Source: an uncultured delta proteobacterium
Lineage (GTDB): Bacteria; Desulfobacterota; Desulfobacteria; Desulfobacterales; JAHEIW01
DNA length: 17,897 nt
Reading direction: 5' to 3'
NCBI GenBank assembly: GCA_963706575.1
Contig: CAVPNL010000020.1
Span: forward strand, 1 to 17,897
Part shown: in pieces, positions 4,146-17,897 of the stretch
Layout: each line of letters begins with the position of its first letter
How positions within the stretch are numbered: the first letter of the stretch is position 1
The notes under the pieces: model-generated
What the model was told of the DNA's origin: nothing
What the model saw: only the letters and a program-made list of their open reading frames with translations
Databases searched by the model: none
Position numbers and translations under genes: made by a program

Positions 4146-5899
4146 TTAAACAACACGCTTAAACGATTTTTCCAGGGCGTCCAGGTCCCAGCGGACCCAG
4201 GTGGGCCGTCCGTGGGGGCAATGGGACGGGTTTTCACAGTCATCCAACTGCTCAAGCAGCTTCCGGATCTGTTGGCCGTCAAGCGTCTGATTGGCCCGCA
4301 TGGCCCCATGGCAGGCCATCACCCTGCGGCACTCATCCAGAACCTCCTTCAAACCCGCTGAACCGCCCGCCGCCGCGGTTTTCTCAACGATTTCATAAAT
4401 CAGGGGTCTGACGTCCCGCCCGGCAAGCAATAGCGGTACCGCCTTGACGACAAAGGTATTTTTGCCAAACGGTTCAATCTCCAATCCCAGGGTCTTTAAA
4501 TCCGCCATCATCTGTCCCAGGATCTCGGCTTCTCTGAAATTTAACTCAAGGGTTTCGGGCACCACAAGCTTCTGGGCGACAGAAGGCTGATCGGCGGCGC
4601 GCCGCCGGAGCTGTTCATAGAGAACGCGCTCATGGGCGGCGTGGTGGTCAATGAGCACCAGACCGGCATCGGATTCACACACAATATAGGTGTTGTGCAG
4701 CTGGCCCACCACCCTTAAAGCGCTAAAGCCTTTGGTGTCAAACATCGGCTCCTGATTCCTCTGGCTGCTGGCTGCTGTTCTCGGTCCTCTGTTTTTAATT
4801 CCGAAATCCGAAATCCGAAATCCGAAATCGCCTTTGGCCGCCTCTGAAACCTGTCCGAATTTGGGTGTCGTATTGGCCGCCGGATAATTTGATCGGCCCC
4901 ATTGTAGGCGATCGACTTCATACAGTCTCTGGGCGATGGCGCTTTTTACGGCTTCATGCACCGCGTGCGGGTTTACAAAGCGAACTTCATTTTTGGTCGG
5001 ATGCACGTTGACATCCACCTGATCAAAGGGAATTTTGATAAAAACAACGGCGATGGGGAATTGCCCCTTGACCAGGCGCTGCGCAAATCCCTTAAAGATA
5101 CCGTGCTGAATCGTCCGGTCGCGTACGAACCTGCCGTTGACAAAGATATAGAGCCCCCGGGAGGTGCGGCGCGTCACCCGCGGAGAACAGATCCAGCCGG
5201 ATATCGAAAGGCCATTGCGGTTAAATTCGATGGCATGCAGATCCGGCCGGGAATCTTTGCCAAGCACATCCGCCACCCGGTCGAGATGCTGTGAAACCGC
5301 CGGCCAGCTTTTAACGGTTTTATTGTTGTGGCTCAGGCGAAACTGCACTGCGGGACGGCCCAGGGCCATGCGGGCAACGGTATCGGCAATGTGGCTCATC
5401 TCGGTGCCGACCGTTTTCAAAAATTTTTTGCGGGCCGGTGTGTTAAAAAAAGCTGCTTGACCGAAATCAGGGTTCCCACCGGGGCCCCGACCTCAGAGAC
5501 ACTTTTTGTTTTGCCGCCGTCAACAATGATCTGCGTGCCGGCATCTGATGACTTATCGCGGGTAATCAGTAGAAAGCGCGATACTGAGGCAATACTGGGC
5601 AGGGCTTCACCCCTGAAGCCCAGGGTGCGGATGGCAAACAAATCATCATCGCTGGATATTTTGCTGGTGGCGTAACGCTCGATGGCTAAAAGCGCATCCG
5701 CGTGATTCATGCCGACGCCATTGTCGGAGACCTGAATCAGGGACTGGCCGCCTTTTTCGACTTCTACGATAATGCGGGTGCTTTCGGCATCCAGCGCATT
5801 TTCCAGCAATTCTTTGACCACTGAAGCCGGCCGTTCAACCACCTCACCGGCCGCAATTTTGTTGGATAACGTTTCGGGGAGTATTTGTATTTTGGGCAT
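4146..5899 (-). CDS. mutL: DNA mismatch repair endonuclease MutL, split here by a 1-nt deletion at 5445-5451
   Basis: MPKIQIL..NKIAAGEVVERPASVVKELLENALDA, TLGFRGEALPSI, VDVNVHPTKNEVRF, DHHAAHERVLYE, ACHGA, CPHGRP. Adding one T to the T7 run restores QLFFNTPARKKFLKT and joins ORFs 5417-5959 and 4146-5420. The start is ATG at 5899; the ORF-track extension is repeat DNA. Confidence 0.95.
4801..4828. repeat. Perfect heptamer tandem repeat (CCGAAAT)x4 inside the mutL linker
   Basis: CCGAAAT at 4801, 4808, 4815, 4822; reads DFGFRISDFG on the minus strand. Confidence 0.95.
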
Positions 5900-5905
5900 G
5901 GATAG

Positions 5906-5940
5906 TGTTTGGTGTTTCGTGTTTGGTGTTTCGTGTTTGG
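5906..5940. repeat. Heptamer array (TGTTTSG)x5, downstream arm of the four-helix-bundle cassette
   Basis: TGTTTGG TGTTTCG TGTTTGG TGTTTCG TGTTTGG between the four-helix stop and the mutL ATG. Confidence 0.95.
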
Positions 5941-5942
5941 AT

Positions 5943-6308
5943 CTACTTATCTCTTCCAATGGATTTCAAATATGCGTTAAGGCTTGGACCTAATTCGTCG
6001 ATCATTTCCCGCAAAAAATCGCTTTGCTTATCGTTAATCAAACCCCGCCTTATGCACCTTCGAAGCCAATATTTTGTTTCATTCAAAGACCCTCTAGAAA
6101 TTCTGACAAATCGCTTGTTATCTTTGGGTGTTCCTCTGCCGGCGCCTTCTGCAATATTAGCACCGATGCTATCCGCAGCCTTTACGAGTTGCATACCAAC
6201 TGTGTTTTTCTCAAAATACTTCCAGGATATTGCGATACCCCAAATATCATCACATAATTTTTCAGCCAGTTTGAAAACTCTGAGATCTTCAAATCGCACA
6301 AAAGCCAT
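5943..6308 (-). CDS. Four helix bundle protein (23S rRNA intervening-sequence protein family, Avd-like fold)
   Basis: FEDLRVFKLA...QLVKAADSIGANIAEGAGR...RFVRISRGSLNETKYWL are family hallmarks; RBS GGAGG at 6320-6316. Confidence 0.92.
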   Translation of the reverse strand: MAFVRFEDLRVFKLAEKLCDDIWGIAISWKYFEKNTVGMQLVKAADSIGANIAEGAGRGTPKDNKRFVRISRGSLNETKYWLRRCIRRGLINDKQSDFLREMIDELGPSLNAYLKSIGRDK

Positions 6309-11383: not shown

Positions 11384-11467
11384 ATTGCGTGATAGATAAA
11401 GACTTTTGCAGACCAAGTCAAGATGCTTTGCCCGGGTATGGCAATTCTCGGCGAGCTGCCCAGCGTT

Positions 11468-11548
11468 AAGATTGCTTCGCTTCGCTCGCAATGACCCGCA
11501 AATGTCTCGCACTGTCATTGCGAGGAGCGTAAGCGACGAAGCAATCTT
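11468..11548. repeat. GTCATTGCGAG-type palindromic doublet upstream of argS
   Basis: AAGATTGCTTCGCTTCGCTCGCAATGAC (11468-11495) and GTCATTGCGAGGAGCGTAAGCGACGAAGCAATCTT (11514-11548) are complementary at both ends. Confidence 0.85.
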
Positions 11549-11752
11549 TTGCTTAATTCCATCGAAAATTTCCGACCCGGACACGGTATTAAACCGTACG
11601 GTTGCGCTAAAATTGCGGATTCATAAATTTTATTTGCTTGATAGCACTTAAATGATAAGTTTCAGCACCTTAAAAGCCAGAGAATTTTATTTTTTCGGAC
11701 GATCAACTCAAAGAAAATCTGACCGAAAAACTTATCATACGAGGAAAACCAA

Positions 11753-12805
11753 GTGGGTCTTAAACAAAAACGTGTTCTGGTTACCGGCGCCTGCGGAACG
11801 GTTGGCAGAGAATTGATTCGTCAGCTTCTGGAACAGCATCAACCGGACGAACTTGTTGGCCTTGATAACAATGAAAGTGAGCTTTTTGCCCTCGAACAGC
11901 AGTTTGCCGAATATGGCCATGCAAATTTCTTTTTAGCCGATGTTCGCGATCGGGACCGGCTAAACGATAAAATGAAGGGCATCGATTGGGTGTTTCATAC
12001 AGCGGCGTTTAAGCACGTCCTGCAGTGTGAGCGGTCCCCTTTTGAAGCGGTGCAGACCAATATTCTGGGGGTTCAAAACATCATATACGCGGCTATCGAA
12101 AACAATGTTGAGCGGGTTATTTTTACCAGCTCGGATAAAGCCGTCAATCCGACAAATGTCATGGGAACATCAAAACTGATGGGCGAACGCCTAATCACCG
12201 CCGCAAACAGCAACCTGCGGGGCGACGGACCAATCTTTACATCCACCCGCTTTGGTAATGTACTCGGTTCCCGTGGCTCGGTGATCCCCATTTTTCGGGA
12301 CCAAATCCGGCGCGGCGGACCGGTCACATTGACCGATCCGGAAATGACCCGCTTTATTATGAGCATCGAAGAAGCGGTCCAGCTGGTCATCGATTCCGGT
12401 ATCCTGTGTCGCGGAGGAGAGGTGTTCGTCACCAAGATGCCGGCCATTCGCATACAGGATTTGGCCGACGTCATGGTCGAAAAGCTGGCCCCGGTCTATG
12501 GTCACCGGGCCGGAGATATCGAAATCAAAATTATCGGCCACCAACCGGGGGAAAAGCTATACGAAGAACTCTTAAACACGGAAGAAACCAGACGCTCATG
12601 GGAGTTGGCACGTTATTTTGTGGTACTTCCGGCCTTCAGGGAAATTTATCGCGATATTGCTTTCGAATACCCGGACCTGACATCAAAGGAAGTCACCCGT
12701 GCGTACCATTCAGGCACTGAAATACCCCTATCAAAATCCAAGCTTGCTGCGTTTCTGGAAAAAAACAAACTTCTTGAATCTGGAATGGCGGAATATTGGG
12801 GTTAG
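11753..12805 (+). CDS. NAD-dependent nucleotide-sugar 4,6-dehydratase/epimerase (Polysacc_synt_2; PseB/CapD-like)
   Basis: VLVTGACGTVG, FHTAAFKHV, SSDKAVNPTNVMGTSK, TRFGNVLGSRGSVIP, MTRF, PGEKLYEEL; GAGG RBS before the GTG start. Confidence 0.92.
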   Translation: MGLKQKRVLVTGACGTVGRELIRQLLEQHQPDELVGLDNNESELFALEQQFAEYGHANFFLADVRDRDRLNDKMKGIDWVFHTAAFKHVLQCERSPFEAVQTNILGVQNIIYAAIENNVERVIFTSSDKAVNPTNVMGTSKLMGERLITAANSNLRGDGPIFTSTRFGNVLGSRGSVIPIFRDQIRRGGPVTLTDPEMTRFIMSIEEAVQLVIDSGILCRGGEVFVTKMPAIRIQDLADVMVEKLAPVYGHRAGDIEIKIIGHQPGEKLYEELLNTEETRRSWELARYFVVLPAFREIYRDIAFEYPDLTSKEVTRAYHSGTEIPLSKSKLAAFLEKNKLLESGMAEYWG

Positions 12806-12808
12806 TTT

Positions 12809-13957
12809 ATGAGGATACTCATATTAGGCGGGGACGGATACCTGGGATGGCCCACGGCCATGAATCTGTCTGCGAACGGTCACCAAGTCGCCGTGGCGGA
12901 TAATTACTTGCGCCGCAGACTATGCCGCGAAGAAAACGTGATGCCCCTTTTTGATGTGCCGGACCTTATGGAACGGGCCGCCATCTGGAAATCGCAATCC
13001 GGCAGTGAAATTCAAGTATTTAGCGGCGACCTGGCCGAATGGGACTTTATAGCAGACGTTTTTAAAAAATTTAACCCGCAGGCTGTTGTACATTATGCCG
13101 AACAGCCCTCGGCGCCCTATTCGATGCTTAATCGCCAGGCGGCGACACTGACGCTGCGTAACAATTTATCGGTTACCGGCAACGTCATTTTTGCCGTGCG
13201 TGAATTTTGTCCGGATGCACACACTGTTAAACTGGGCACCATGGGCGAATACGGCACTCCCAATATCGACATAGAGGAAGGTTGGCTGGAAGTTGAGCAC
13301 AAAGGCCGGCAACACAAGTTTTTATATCCACGGCAGGCCGGCAGTCTGTATCATACTACCAAAATCATGGACACTGATCTGTTGTGGTTCTACGTCCGGA
13401 CCTGGGGGTTGCGGGTAACCGACCTGATGCAGGGTCCGGTCTACGGCCTTTTTACCGATGAAGCCCAAAAAGATGAACGCCTGCTGCCTTTTTTTAGTTA
13501 TGACGAAATTTTCGGAACCGTGCTGAATCGATTCGTGGTGCAGGCGGTGGTCGGGTATCCCCTTACGGTCTATGGTGAAGGCGGTCAAACCCGGGGCTAT
13601 TTAAACATTAAAGACACTCTGAATTGTGTTCGACTTTCAGTGGAAAATCCGGTCGAACCCGGCGAATTGCGCATTTTCAACCAGTTCACAGAAACTTTTA
13701 GCGTCAATGATCTGGCAGAGAAAGTCAGGGAGGCCGGCAATCAACTTAAATTAAATGTAAAAATCGATCATATTGAAAACCCCCGCATAGAGGCAGAAAC
13801 GCATTATTACAACCCCATTCACACCGGGCTGATCGACCTGGGATTAAAACCCCACTATTTATCTGAGGAAGTCCTTTTGGAAATGATGGAATTTGTCATC
13901 ACGCACAAAGGTTTAATAAATAGAGATCAAATCTGTCGAAATGTGAAATGGAATTAA
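12809..13957 (+). CDS. sqdB: UDP-sulfoquinovose synthase (SqdB/SQD1/Agl3 family)
   Basis: ILGGDGYLGWPTA, VHYAEQPSAPYSM, KLGTMGEYGTPNIDIEEG, GSLYHTTK, TDLMQGPVYG, FGTVLNRF, PLTVYGEGGQTRG, FNQFTE, NPRIEAETHYYN. Confidence 0.9.
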   Translation: MRILILGGDGYLGWPTAMNLSANGHQVAVADNYLRRRLCREENVMPLFDVPDLMERAAIWKSQSGSEIQVFSGDLAEWDFIADVFKKFNPQAVVHYAEQPSAPYSMLNRQAATLTLRNNLSVTGNVIFAVREFCPDAHTVKLGTMGEYGTPNIDIEEGWLEVEHKGRQHKFLYPRQAGSLYHTTKIMDTDLLWFYVRTWGLRVTDLMQGPVYGLFTDEAQKDERLLPFFSYDEIFGTVLNRFVVQAVVGYPLTVYGEGGQTRGYLNIKDTLNCVRLSVENPVEPGELRIFNQFTETFSVNDLAEKVREAGNQLKLNVKIDHIENPRIEAETHYYNPIHTGLIDLGLKPHYLSEEVLLEMMEFVITHKGLINRDQICRNVKWN

Positions 13958-14011
13958 CAAAAGATCAAAACAAAAGAGCGCTGCTTAAACTTGCCATTTG
14001 GGAATTGTAAG

Positions 14012-15054
14012 ATGTCAACATTAAGAATATTGGGTTGCATGCTAGGTGTTGTAGGGTTATTTGTAACATTTTATATCTGCCGTGGCACCCGCTGGAACCG
14101 GATCAATTTTATCTTTTTTATGCTCCTGAATTTAAGCCTGATTGCCGTTACCATTAATCCCAACATTCTAAATGCGCTAAGAGATGCGCTGGCTCTGCAT
14201 AAGGCTTACCGGGGAAGAATAATTGCCCTGTTGATTGTTTCGAATATTTTCTTGCTGTTCTACATTTTCTTCACAAAACTAAAAGTAGATAATATTCATT
14301 TTCAATTCGACCGCTTGGTCCGCTCATTGGGAACAAGAGAAATTGAAAAAAGCGCTGATTTTTCCCAGCAAATGAAGCCCATTATGATCCTCATCCCTGC
14401 TTATAATGAGGCCGAAAATTTGGAGGCATTGCTGCCAAGGATCCCGAAACAAATCGAAGGCATTGATGTTGGCATTTAGTGGTCGACGATGGCAGTGATG
14501 ATGGAACTTTTTCCATAGCGGAAAGCAATGGCGCCTTTGCTGTTAAAAACCTGATCAACCGGGGCGGCGGCGCCGCATTGCGACTGGGATATGATATTTT
14601 ACGAAAAGCAGCTGTGCGCTATTGTATAACCATGGATGCCGATGGGCAGCACCGGCCGGAAGATATCGCCTATCTCATATTGCCTATTATTGAAGGACAA
14701 TATGATTGCGTGATCGGATCACGAATTCTTGGCGGTAGAGAATCCGGCAGCCGGTTAAGAATTGCGGGGGTTTATGTTTTCGGCAGAATTGTCACCACAC
14801 TGTTGGGTAAAAAGATTACCGATCCCTCCAGCGGTTTTAGGGCTTTTCGCATGGATGCTTTAAGCGCCATCGGGCTGCATGAAGACCAATATCATACCAG
14901 TGAACTAATAATTGAAGCCGTCAAACAGGGCCTGCGCATCGGCGAAGTGCCCATAACCATTTTGAGACGCAAATACGGCAAAAGTAAAAAGGGAAAAGAT
15001 CTAATCTATGGCATTCATTTTGCCCGCATCATCATTAAGACATGGTGGCGATAG
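14012..15054 (+). CDS. DUF2304-like membrane domain fused to a GT2 polyprenol-phosphate glycosyltransferase (DPM1-like), split by a 1-nt deletion at 14475-14477
   Basis: Three N-terminal TM segments, then ILIPAYNEAENL. One extra T gives GILVVDDGSDDGT, continuing to NRGGGAALRLG, TMDADGQHRPEDI, VIGSR, ITDPSSGFRAF. Confidence 0.85.
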
Positions 15055-15076
15055 GATCATTTCTTAAAAATATATT

Positions 15077-16033
15077 ATGGCTGAAAAGACAATGGGAGAT
15101 GCGTTTGTTTTTATCGTCGGTTCACCAAGATCAGGTACGACAATACTGGGAGAATTGCTGGACAAACATCATCACATCAGCCAGTGGTATGAGCCCTATT
15201 TCGTATGGGACCGATTTTTCCGGACGGCACCTGACGATGAAAGAACAGAAGCAGATGCATCACCGCAGGTCAAAAAATGGATCTACCGCAATTTTTCCAA
15301 ATATAAAACGAAGAAAAAATGTGTGGTTCTGATCGATAAATCTCCTAGAAATAGTCTCAAGATACCTTTTATTTTAAAAATATTTCCTCAAGCGAAGTTT
15401 ATACATCTATTGCGCGATGGGAGAGATGTCACACTTTCGATAAACAAAGAATGGTTGCGCAGGCAAAATATCATAAAAAATCCGCTCTCTAAAGGTCGCT
15501 TTAATTATGGGGCGGCATATCAGGTAATCCATAAGTTTTTGGGTCGTCAGCCTTTCTTAAATGATAAATTAAGGGCATTGTGGTTTGAAACCCACGGGCA
15601 TCTCATAAATAAAGAAAAACACTTAAATCGGTTGCGTTGGAGAGGTGACATCGGTTGGGGCCCCAGGTTTAAACACTGGGAGCGAATTTATGATCAATCG
15701 TCACTACTGCAATTCAATGCCTACCAATGGTTACATTGCGTAAAACGCATCGAAACGCATTGGAAATTAATTCAAAAAAACTACCGCCTCATCGTTTGCT
15801 ATGAAGACCTTATTCAAAAGCCCCGCCAAACAATTACAAAGATATTCGACTTCTTAGGTTTAAATGCTAGCAAAGCGTTCTTTGCGTCTCTCCCTGAATT
15901 AAAGGCAGATAACTTCAATAAATGGAAAGCAGGGTTCTCAAAAGAAGATTTAAAAGAAATTAGCCCTATTTTAAGCACCCAGCTTAAAAAGCTAGGTTAT
16001 GCAGAAACAGAGGAATGGATAAACGGTATCTAA
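15077..16033 (+). CDS. PAPS-dependent sulfotransferase (Sulfotransfer_3-like)
   Basis: FIVGSPRSGTTIL (5'-PSB), IDKSP, FPQAKFIHLLRDGRDVTLS (3'-PB), YEDLIQKP..IFDFLGL. Confidence 0.9.
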   Translation: MAEKTMGDAFVFIVGSPRSGTTILGELLDKHHHISQWYEPYFVWDRFFRTAPDDERTEADASPQVKKWIYRNFSKYKTKKKCVVLIDKSPRNSLKIPFILKIFPQAKFIHLLRDGRDVTLSINKEWLRRQNIIKNPLSKGRFNYGAAYQVIHKFLGRQPFLNDKLRALWFETHGHLINKEKHLNRLRWRGDIGWGPRFKHWERIYDQSSLLQFNAYQWLHCVKRIETHWKLIQKNYRLIVCYEDLIQKPRQTITKIFDFLGLNASKAFFASLPELKADNFNKWKAGFSKEDLKEISPILSTQLKKLGYAETEEWINGI

Positions 16034-16962
16034 AAACAGTCTTGAAAATTGTTATATCCTCCCTTTTTATCGGATATCTTTCTTTCAAGGTCGACGTTTC
16101 TTCACTGGTCGATAAAATGGGCAGCATTGATGTTGGCCTTTACGTAATTTCTACACTCCTTGCTGTGTTATCAGGAATCATCGTAGCCGCAAAACATTAT
16201 TTCCTCATAAAAGGAAGCGCTATTAATCATTCGCTGTTTTCATTAGTAAAAATAAATTTCATTGCCAGATTTTATGCACTTTTCCTACCGTCAGCCGTCG
16301 GAAGAGAGGTTGTCAGATGGATTAAAGTTACCCGCAACAAAAATGGCAGGGCTCAATTTTTAGCTTCGATCGTATTCGAACGGTTAACCTTTCTACTCGT
16401 GCTTCTATGCTGTGGGATAATTCCGCTATTTTTCTATCAATCAAATTCCGCGATCGAGACAATAAGGATTCGCATTTTGCCAATAGCCATCATCGGGATA
16501 TGTCTGGTGTCGCTATTTATTTTGTTTTATATTTTTGCGCCAATACATGATCTGATTAAATCATTGGTATATTCAACACTGCAGCGAATACGATTTAAGT
16601 TAGATGTTGATGCTTATTTTGAAAACCCGAATCTCAATATAATGAACACGAAGACGTTTGCTGTTATTCTCGGGCTGAGTATTGTTTGGCAAATATTTTT
16701 TATCTGCAGACTGCTGGTTCTTATTAAAGCCTCATCTGTTCAGTTGGGCTTTCTGGATATCACATGGATCGGCTCACTGGTACTGCTGCTGCAAACGATA
16801 CCTATTTCTTTTGCTGGGATTGGATTAAGAGAAGGCGCTTTGGCCTATTTATTTTCTTTATTTAATTTACCCCCCGAAAAAGGGGTTCTAATTGGAATTT
16901 TATTTTTCTCCCAGATGTTGATCATTTCTTTTGTGGGGGGAATTCTTGAATTGGTTGAATAA
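16015..16962 (+). CDS. UPF0104/lysylphosphatidylglycerol-synthase TM-domain protein (putative lipid-linked sugar flippase)
   Basis: Multi-TM; FYALFLPSAVGREVVR, SIVFERL, IPISFAGIGLREGA motifs; overlaps the end of the sulfotransferase gene. Confidence 0.8.
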   Translation: MDKRYLKTVLKIVISSLFIGYLSFKVDVSSLVDKMGSIDVGLYVISTLLAVLSGIIVAAKHYFLIKGSAINHSLFSLVKINFIARFYALFLPSAVGREVVRWIKVTRNKNGRAQFLASIVFERLTFLLVLLCCGIIPLFFYQSNSAIETIRIRILPIAIIGICLVSLFILFYIFAPIHDLIKSLVYSTLQRIRFKLDVDAYFENPNLNIMNTKTFAVILGLSIVWQIFFICRLLVLIKASSVQLGFLDITWIGSLVLLLQTIPISFAGIGLREGALAYLFSLFNLPPEKGVLIGILFFSQMLIISFVGGILELVE

Positions 16963-17000
16963 AAGAAGTTCGAGACGCTATCAATCAAAAACGTGGAGCT

Positions 17001-17897
17001 ATGATGCAGAAATCCAACGAATTAAGCAGAAATCATTCTATTTTATTGATATTCTTGGTGCTTTCTGTTTTTTTGGTTTTGGGCTTTTTGCTTTATTCCA
17101 ACACCTTTGAAAGTCCATTTGTTTTTGATGATACACACAGAATTGAGGAAAATCAGAGCATTCGAATAACTGAGCTTAGCGCGGCAAACCTGATTGATAC
17201 CGCATTTGGCAAACAATCTGCAAAGACACGACCCATTGGCAATGTTACGTTTGCTTTAAATTATTACTTCCATCAGTACAACGTGGAAGGCTACCATCTT
17301 GTTAATATCGTTATACACATTTTAGCCGGTATATTCCTCTTCATTTTTGTCCAAACCACCTTAAATCTTCCTTCACTTAGACTGAAGTTGATCAAACTTT
17401 CATGGTTGCCTTTTTTGCGGCTTTGCTTTGGTTGGTTCATCCGATCCAAACCCAATCGGTTACCTATATTGTGCAGCGCATGAACAGTATGGCAGCCCTG
17501 TTTTATATTCTTGCTTTTTGGCTCTATGTGAAAGGGCGTCTTGCGGCGCACCCGGGCAGGAAATGGGGCTGGTTCGGCAGCGCTGCACTGGCATGGATAT
17601 TCGCACTGGGGAGCAAACAAAACGCTGCCACCTTGCCGTTTTTTGTTTTTCTTTACGAGTGGTATTTCTTCCAGGATCTTAGCGCCGATTGGTTGAAGCG
17701 AAATTTGAAAATTGTTCTGTTGGTTGTTTTTGTTTTTGGTATGATCGCGCTATTATATTTAGGTTTTGATCCTATAGAGAGATTATCGTCAATTAATGAC
17801 TTTGCAAACAAGGAATTTACCCTTTATGAAAGGCTAATGACTCAGTTTCGAGTGGTGATTCATTATATCAGCCTGATATTTTTCCCCCCATCCCTCT
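17001..17897 (+). CDS. TMTC-like GT-C membrane glycosyltransferase (protein O-mannosyltransferase-like); partial, with a frameshift near 17388
   Basis: LYSNTFESPFVFDD, TRPIGNVTFALNY, GYHLVNIVIH in the first frame. After a -1 shift the frame is open to the window end: ALLWLVHPIQTQSVTYIVQRMNSMAALFY...ALGSKQNAATLP...ERLMTQFRVVIHYISLIFFPHP. Confidence 0.82.

Follow-up and report, generated by a model that had tools for sequence, protein, structure and literature searches.

What sugar does the six-gene cluster at the end of this contig make, on which carrier is it held, and to what is it transferred? The window analysed here (the whole stretch of 17,897 nucleotides, which is the entire contig C20) comes from an uncultured delta proteobacterium, and the cluster spans it from 11753 to the contig end, with argS divergent from it. 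The original prediction described a co-oriented cluster of six genes, and this was borne out: all six lie on the plus strand and their order is kept in relatives. They are:

11753..12805, + strand: UDP-N-acetylglucosamine (UDP-GlcNAc)-type dehydratase (Polysacc_synt_2, E 1.5e-98; SSDK..MxxxK), partner of a Pro-type SqdB; nearest structure Pen (6BWC)
12809..13957, + strand: predicted SqdB/SQD1-like sugar sulfonate synthase, from homology and catalytic residues, with Pro100 in place of Arg101
14012..15054, + strand: DUF2304-GT2 fusion (GacJ-GacI / Rv3632-PpgS type), a predicted polyprenol-phosphate sugar synthase
15077..16033, + strand: sulfotransferase dependent on 3'-phosphoadenosine-5'-phosphosulfate (PAPS), Sulfotransfer_3, with PRSGTT and RDGRD motifs
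16015..16962, + strand: UPF0104 / LPG_synthase_TM membrane protein, predicted from its domain match to be flippase-like
17001..17897, + strand: glycosyltransferase of the GT-C fold with tetratricopeptide repeats (TPRs), TfpW/TMTC-like, N-terminal ~300 residues with a DD motif, running off the contig end

The genes are spaced by 3, 54, 22, -19 and 38 bases. The relatives G005 and L075 keep the identical six-gene order, and so the cluster is not a chance arrangement. Versions in G022, G011 and the assembly's own contig C19 carry the cluster plus extra sulfotransferases and a second GT2, and those of G022 and G011 also a PMT_2 GT-C. Among 24 other genomes of the family, most of them incomplete, SqdB-like genes were found in seven, the fusion GT2 in five (all within the seven), and some TMTC-like gene in 23.

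The leading reading, held tentatively, is that the cluster makes a C6-sulfonated amino sugar, loads it onto undecaprenyl phosphate (Und-P) and transfers it to exported periplasmic proteins by way of the GT-C/TPR protein. The dehydratase, whose family is clear, would act on UDP-GlcNAc to give an intermediate, either a 5,6-ene or a 4-keto form, and the Pro-type SqdB, placed by homology and catalytic residues, would add sulfite to this putative substrate at C6, the predicted nucleotide sugar being UDP-N-acetyl-sulfoquinovosamine. The DUF2304-GT2 fusion, again of clear family, would form the Und-P-sugar, with co-occurrence suggesting which sugar; the sulfotransferase would add O-sulfate from PAPS, probably onto the lipid-linked sugar; the UPF0104 protein might flip it; and the GT-C/TPR protein, judged by the fold and motifs of its orthologue, would transfer the sugar to a TPR-held protein in the manner of TfpW. 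A fuller version would have bacterial O-glycosylation of exported proteins with an O-sulfated N-acetyl-sulfoquinovosamine (347.00 Da), Und-P-borne and depending on a Pen-like dehydratase and a TfpW/TMTC-like enzyme, and would make the Pro type a misnamed sulfo-amino-sugar synthase found from haloarchaea to phages; that all of this holds together we consider unlikely, if worth stating.

The predicted sulfonate synthase and its sugar

Over its whole length the SqdB-like protein can be aligned with SQD1 (1QRR; phmmer E 2.4e-131), and it keeps the catalytic residues of SQD1 and Agl3, namely His95, Thr144, Met145, Glu147, Tyr148, Tyr181 and Lys185. Its NF041015 score of 436.9 bits is below the curated cut-off of 575, a narrow one, since only one of two control genomes passes it. 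The difference lies at Pro100, where SQD1 and Agl3 have Arg101, and the R101A variant of Agl3 is reported as inactive (PMC4388408). Proline occupies this site in all 80 of the best 80 loci (genus relatives included, so these are not independent), in 27 of the 29 phylum loci read from 40 SqdB-positive genomes, and in all three SqdB-like copies of the assembly itself. The SqdB of S. meliloti is of the Arg type, and both types are present in four of five alphaproteobacterial genomes. Among the SqdB family representatives retrieved, 58 were Pro and 13 Arg. In a midpoint-rooted tree of 235 near full-length sequences, from which SQD1 and Agl3 themselves were left out, the Pro type (199) was widely scattered and the Arg type (25) largely gathered in a single region; the deep branches were weakly supported. 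Genes resembling PAPS reductase occur in 8 of the 80 best sqdB loci (one representative was scanned), which fits the use of sulfite.

The dehydratase is a close companion of this enzyme. One lies within 10 kb of sqdB in 72 of the 80 best loci, and these neighbouring dehydratases form an SSDK/M clade separate from the CapD-like neighbours. In the reverse search across 400 phylum genomes, dehydratases of at least 53% identity were found in 18, each with an adjacent SqdB-like gene (18 of 19 copies), and four weaker matches (45-46%) were without one. The best PDB match is 6BWC (E 9.3e-79), the Pen protein of B. thuringiensis, which is described as a UDP-GlcNAc 5,6-dehydratase with UDP-GlcNAc-5,6-ene as product; the same source reports that SQD1 and Agl3 yield UDP-Glc-5,6-ene when sulfite is withheld (PMC8987622). 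Some Pro-type sqdB genes occur without this dehydratase, as do many distant fusion-GT2 loci, so that its role may be to help or to modify, without being indispensable.

A parallel exists in haloarchaea. Across 72,556 plasmids, SqdB-like genes were found in 23 and the fusion GT2 in five; both occur in four, all haloarchaeal. The Natrinema and Haladaptatus plasmid loci combine a Pro-type SqdB with a fusion GT2 that is 33-35% identical. The Haladaptatus locus (L290; NZ_CP085307, 6353-20236) encodes a Pro-type SqdB, two epimerases, UPF0104, a deacetylase, DUF2304-GT2 and two GT39 GT-Cs, and judged by this gene content is a candidate pathway for lipid-linked sulfoquinovosamine. Haloarchaeal-type SqdB homologues have Pro in 119 of 120 cases among the matches listed. 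Haloarcula hispanica is reported to have dolichol phosphate (DolP)-QuiNS, a 6-sulfo-QuiN branch on its S-layer N-glycan, and DolP-HexA-SO4, with a mass step over DolP-Hex of 62.9 (PMC9943897). The computed step for QuiN6S, 62.98, fits this value, and that for sulfoquinovose (SQ), 63.96, does not.

The original prediction took the donor to be UDP-SQ; in this version it would be made from UDP-glucose, and Und-P would bring the sugar to proteins or to a glycan. That version has in its favour that the remaining SQD1/Agl3 catalytic residues are all kept, that only two alignment columns part the Arg and Pro groups, and that Agl3 is reported to supply SQ to an N-glycan (PMC4388408). It now seems quite improbable: Arg101, essential in Agl3, is absent here, Arg and Pro types coexist within single genomes, and the partners (dehydratase, NeuC and the GacI/PpgS-type GT2) belong to families acting on UDP-N-acetylhexosamine (UDP-HexNAc). 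Because these partner families all act on UDP-HexNAc, the donor is put down as a 6-sulfonated HexNAc, and a C6-sulfonated amino sugar derived from UDP-GlcNAc is more likely than UDP-SQ. The computed protein-modification masses are 267.04 or 225.03 for the sulfonated amino sugar and 226.01 for SQ, so that the mass of ~226 Da proposed earlier stays as one option beside two more apt values.

That the locus is not an operon for sulfoquinovosyl diacylglycerol (SQDG) had also been proposed, and this stands as far as it could be tested. The ORFs of the window include no sulfolipid synthase, GT8 (PF01501) gave no matches in the genome (91.8% complete), and the S. meliloti gene after sqdB, which from gene order we take to be SqdD, had no tblastn match there. 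An SQDG pathway of the ordinary kind, relying on an SqdX-type GT4 encoded elsewhere, could draw on the 30 GT4 matches in this incomplete genome, among which no SqdX-aimed search was made; given the lack of GT8, of an SqdD-like match and of any Arg-type copy, together with the operon context, it is highly improbable, and the sulfolipid reading was rejected to that extent.

Viral contigs (L246-L249, L253 and L256-L259) also have Pro-type SqdB-like genes, here beside neuC/neuA/neuB-like genes, with NeuC above its cut-off in L248, L256 and L258 and a ribonucleotide reductase gene next in L248. Their gene content suggests a phage-encoded, sulfonated sialic-acid-like sugar. Separately, SqdB-like representatives such as P0004 and P0011 (680-850 aa) show two matching stretches parted by a long, intein-like insert.

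Lipid carrier, GT-C protein and acceptor

That the GT2 loads a polyprenol phosphate, as had been predicted, is supported by the intact fusion, for which all seven PDB matches are polyprenol-phosphate glycosyltransferases (DPMS, ArnC or GtrB-type). The PpgS equivalog model gave 91.6 bits and its cut-off of 370 was not reached. The DUF2304 proteins GacJ and Rv3632 are reported to stimulate GacI and PpgS, giving GlcNAc-P- and GalNAc-P-polyprenol, and fused DUF2304-GT2 proteins of deltaproteobacteria are already on record (10.1101/180810). Across 80 metagenome loci of the fusion GT2, an SqdB-like gene was present in 44 (33 of 50 among loci of at least 5 kb), and the Arg101 site in the 35 readable ones was Pro in 31, Ser in three, Ala in one and Arg in none. 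Nine of the 400 phylum genomes have the fusion, and seven of these are SqdB-like-positive, against 40 of 400 overall; in five of the seven the two genes are on the same contig, within ~25 kb. One further locus, L236 (G410), has a DUF2304-GT2 fusion and, running divergently from it, four TMTC-like genes in tandem, with a second GT2 + DUF2304 pair, a sulfotransferase and UPF0104, and a dehydratase-sqdB pair far off on the same contig.

The operon could instead hold two modules, a dehydratase-SqdB pair feeding some other glycan and a GT2-sulfotransferase-UPF0104-GT-C set that moves an O-sulfated ordinary HexNAc. This appears doubtful to us, and the evidence cuts both ways. The downstream module is kept without sqdB at the locus in several cases: L129, L143 (where the GT2 is 76% identical) and L150 have GT2-UPF0104-TMTC with no sqdB, nor argS, upstream, and G001 keeps UPF0104-TMTC alone. 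The fusion GT2 is found in only 10 of the 80 best sqdB loci, leaving 70 without it, and the 30 GT4 matches in the genome would provide other outlets. On the other hand, non-Arg SqdB-like genes accompany the fusion GT2 over identities that range from 76% to ~33%, haloarchaea included, and the five other fusion-bearing genomes of the family all have sqdB.

For the sulfotransferase, an APS kinase encoded elsewhere in the genome could serve as PAPS source. The UPF0104 protein scores 106.8 bits with PF03706 and 39.8 bits with TIGR00374, just under the cut-off of 43.2, and annotation weakly points to a flippase. In H. hispanica, Agl23 is a reported flippase, its protein family not being given in the accessible parts of the source (PMC11182771).

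The last gene is cut at the contig end, with ~300 of ~800 residues in the window, and its assignment to GT-C with TPRs depends on the intact orthologue in G005 (801 aa, 53-65% identical to the window pieces), which combines a membrane domain with a long tail of TPRs. A model of this orthologue built from 83 sequences had a pLDDT of 89.1 and a pTM of 0.91. The top 20 VIA rows for it are all GT-C-fold chains, with Z 18.0 to Pmt1-Pmt2, Pmt4 and AglB (for 6p2r_B, Z 18.0, rmsd 4.6 and 338 aligned), and ArnT, AftB and ALG12 also rank high (Z 13.9-15.9). Foldseek gave nothing at E 0.001, the best being STT3 at E 1.1e-3; phmmer found no PDB match to the membrane domain, a profile search gave only TPR proteins among the matches listed, and the listed structure matches include no TMTC or TfpW structure. 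The acidic DD motif of the first external loop is strongly conserved (D43 in 83/83, D44 in 79/83), and RP, R160, K206, D304 and E368/R370/Y372 are kept in homologues, echoing TMTC motifs. The Atlas score is 0.94 for a eukaryotic cluster (25% DUF1736), which is a lead only. On this model the last gene codes for a GT-C, as originally predicted, and carries TPRs; the TMTC motifs are kept in part, KE being mostly KQ, and DUF1736 gave no match. The closer tested analogue is the bacterial TfpW of P. aeruginosa group IV, described as a GT-C with a DD motif, ~11 transmembrane helices and a C-terminal TPR domain that glycosylates pilin (10.1101/2020.04.19.049825). Prokaryotic TMTC homologues, one of them deltaproteobacterial, are on record (PMC7801869).

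Pilins do occur near such genes elsewhere. At 29 TMTC-like loci of other genomes, a pilin motif was found within 1.5 kb in six (five of the six ORFs tested match N_methyl), and a DPM-like GT2 likewise in six, five of them with DUF2304. In the assembly itself (G000, C3:121000-135900), pilA immediately precedes three TMTC-like GT-C/TPR paralogues, in a cluster that also has GT2s, methyltransferases, VKOR-DsbA and UPF0104, with a similar arrangement in G013 (L126); by gene content this is a probable pilin glycosylation locus.

The same lipid-linked sulfonated sugar could be used by the GT-C protein to decorate a surface glycan, lipopolysaccharide (LPS) or lipid A, in the manner of GacL, Rv3779 or ArnT. 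We regard this as unlikely, though several facts speak for it. Both characterised DUF2304-GT2 systems decorate polysaccharides or wall glycans, the matches to ArnT, AftB and ALG12 also rank high, there is no pilin at the locus, and most Pro-type loci are of the polysaccharide type. Set against it are the top fold matches (Z 18.0), all to enzymes that glycosylate proteins, the DD motif together with the long stretch of TPRs, which fit TfpW and TMTC, and the paralogues that neighbour pilins.

Several observations weigh against a sulfonated amino sugar that is carried on lipid to protein, and these are best taken together. Concerning the sugar, the Pro type is by its distribution the majority type rather than a recent loss and may be ancestral, so that the change from Arg to Pro marks a subfamily and does not prove a switch of substrate; most of the best 80 Pro-type loci are polysaccharide-type loci; and the 120 matches listed do not include the SqdB-like protein of H. 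hispanica itself. A 5,6-ene product can only be put forward hypothetically, because the window dehydratase has Met, as in PglF and WbpM, where Pen has Tyr. Concerning the linkage of the genes, a promoter/terminator scan stayed below its shuffle means (7 against 12.8; 5 against 7.8) and did not establish co-transcription, four of the seven genomes with both fusion and SqdB-like genes are of one family, no SqdB match was obtained in the fusion-bearing G198 and G212, and to these are added the loci, given above, in which the two modules occur apart. Concerning the last gene and its acceptor, neither window piece matches Pfam, with no DUF1736 (PF08409) at E 0.001; the KE motif is mostly KQ (E in 12/83); and neither a pilin nor another acceptor lies beside this locus. 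TMTC-like genes are present in 35 of 150 phylum genomes, only one of which (G065) is SqdB-like-positive, on another contig, and in only two of the 80 best sqdB loci; at fusion-GT2 loci they occur in nine of 80, five of these with an SqdB-like sequence. The co-occurrence with sqdB that was to be checked across genomes was found for the GT2, far beyond the genus, and failed for TMTC (1 of 35 phylum genomes), the latter pairing being confined to this lineage and to a small number of metagenome loci. From this sparse linkage it follows that the GT-C would be a platform of general use, with the sulfo-sugar cassette as an input particular to the lineage.

Contig, copies and neighbouring sequence

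The parent assembly is 5.67 Mb in 25 contigs, 91.81% complete and 6.39% contaminated. Its nearest relatives are titled Desulfobacterales and aprA is present in the genome, and the host is therefore taken to be a sulfate reducer. The cluster is interrupted by two frame breaks, one at 14476-14479, which puts DUF2304 and GT2 out of frame, and one near 17380-17390 in the last gene. The fusion is in frame in both other copies of the assembly (C6 and C19) and in relatives, and contigs of run X4 have an extra letter after 14476 and after 17380 (one contig each, depth <5). The mutL gene of the window (4146-5959) is also split, near 5414-5450, which is consistent with assembly indels. True splits or pseudogenes are disfavoured on these grounds, and both breaks in the cluster are probably assembly errors.

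Two further copies of the whole window, with its housekeeping genes argS, gatA and mutL, are present on C6 and C19 and show ~81-96% nucleotide identity. Since housekeeping genes recur too, and the assembly is contaminated to the extent given, the three copies are probably sibling strains within one bin; paralogues are disfavoured, as argS, gatA and mutL recur along with the cluster. The copy on C6 has many frame breaks and two TMTC-like genes in tandem.

Three smaller features were seen. At 11430-11620, a short element near 11512-11547 is common to many unrelated contigs and several contigs skip ~175-190 bases, which makes it likely that a small insert, mobile or repeated, separates argS from the operon here. 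A 121-aa ORF at 5943-6308, between mutL and gatA, presumably specifies a four-helix-bundle (23S rRNA intervening sequence)-like protein. In G022, a PF05635 gene stands between the dehydratase gene and sqdB (L017:5499-5918).

Significance and comparison with known systems

Literature searches, in which subscription papers were mostly outside coverage, turned up no paper that deals with this operon, with the division into Arg and Pro types or with any sulfonated sugar borne on a lipid in bacteria, and the part of one source that was covered lists no C-S monosaccharides beyond SQ and sulfofucose (PMC11407970). What the locus would add, judged from its genes, is the joining of dehydratase-SqdB, GT2 and GT-C parts in one conserved operon, a Pro signature tied to the GT2, and a haloarchaeal precedent. 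If the sulfonated amino sugar reading is true, bacterial glycobiology would gain a carbon-sulfonated amino sugar, and bacteria a protein glycan that is sulfonated; a substrate would be at hand for a large GT-C/TPR enzyme family (5307 matches among 8000 scored candidates), and candidate genes for the DolP-QuiNS of H. hispanica. Many 'SQ synthases' of sediment genomes (27 of the 29 read in this phylum are Pro type) would then have an organosulfonate other than SQ as product, and estimates of how much SQ is made would be affected.

Compared with SQD1, SqdB and Agl3, the synthase shows clear homology and the same catalytic T/Y/K, His95, Met145, Glu147 and Tyr148, and differs in having Pro for Arg101, a score below the NF041015 cut-off, a dehydratase partner and no SqdD. 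Pen has TDK..YxxxK and works with Pal, whereas the window dehydratase has SDK..MxxxK, like PglF and WbpM, and travels with SqdB. The GacI/GacJ/GacK/GacL system of S. pyogenes and PpgS/Rv3632 of M. tuberculosis share a DUF2304-assisted GT2 and a HexNAc-P-polyprenol for a GT-C; they use plain GlcNAc or GalNAc donors, polysaccharide acceptors and a Wzx flippase, and have no sulfonate synthase, sulfotransferase or TPRs.

For the last gene, comparison of architecture and motifs shows that TfpW shares the GT-C with C-terminal TPRs and the DDX motif, with a lipid-linked monosaccharide as donor and a protein as acceptor. It differs in following pilA, in using D-Araf and in its YX6PFX7P motif, of which the window gene keeps only YX6P (Y289, P296). 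The animal TMTC1-4 proteins, as described for GT105 (PMC7801869), share the GT-C, the TPRs and DD, and in part RP, the R of RxD, the K of KE, the D of DW and an ExRxY-like motif; in the window's family DUF1736 gave no match, KE is mostly KQ and RxD is RxN, and the donor here is predicted not to be mannose. H. hispanica provides a sulfo-amino sugar on a polyprenol monophosphate and a final glycoprotein, differing in being archaeal, with an AglB-dependent N-glycan branch and a free amine. The haloarchaeal plasmids carry the same set of Pro-type SqdB and DUF2304-GT2 (with UPF0104 and GT-C), and the two loci that were read have no TfpW/TMTC-like enzyme and no Pen-like dehydratase.

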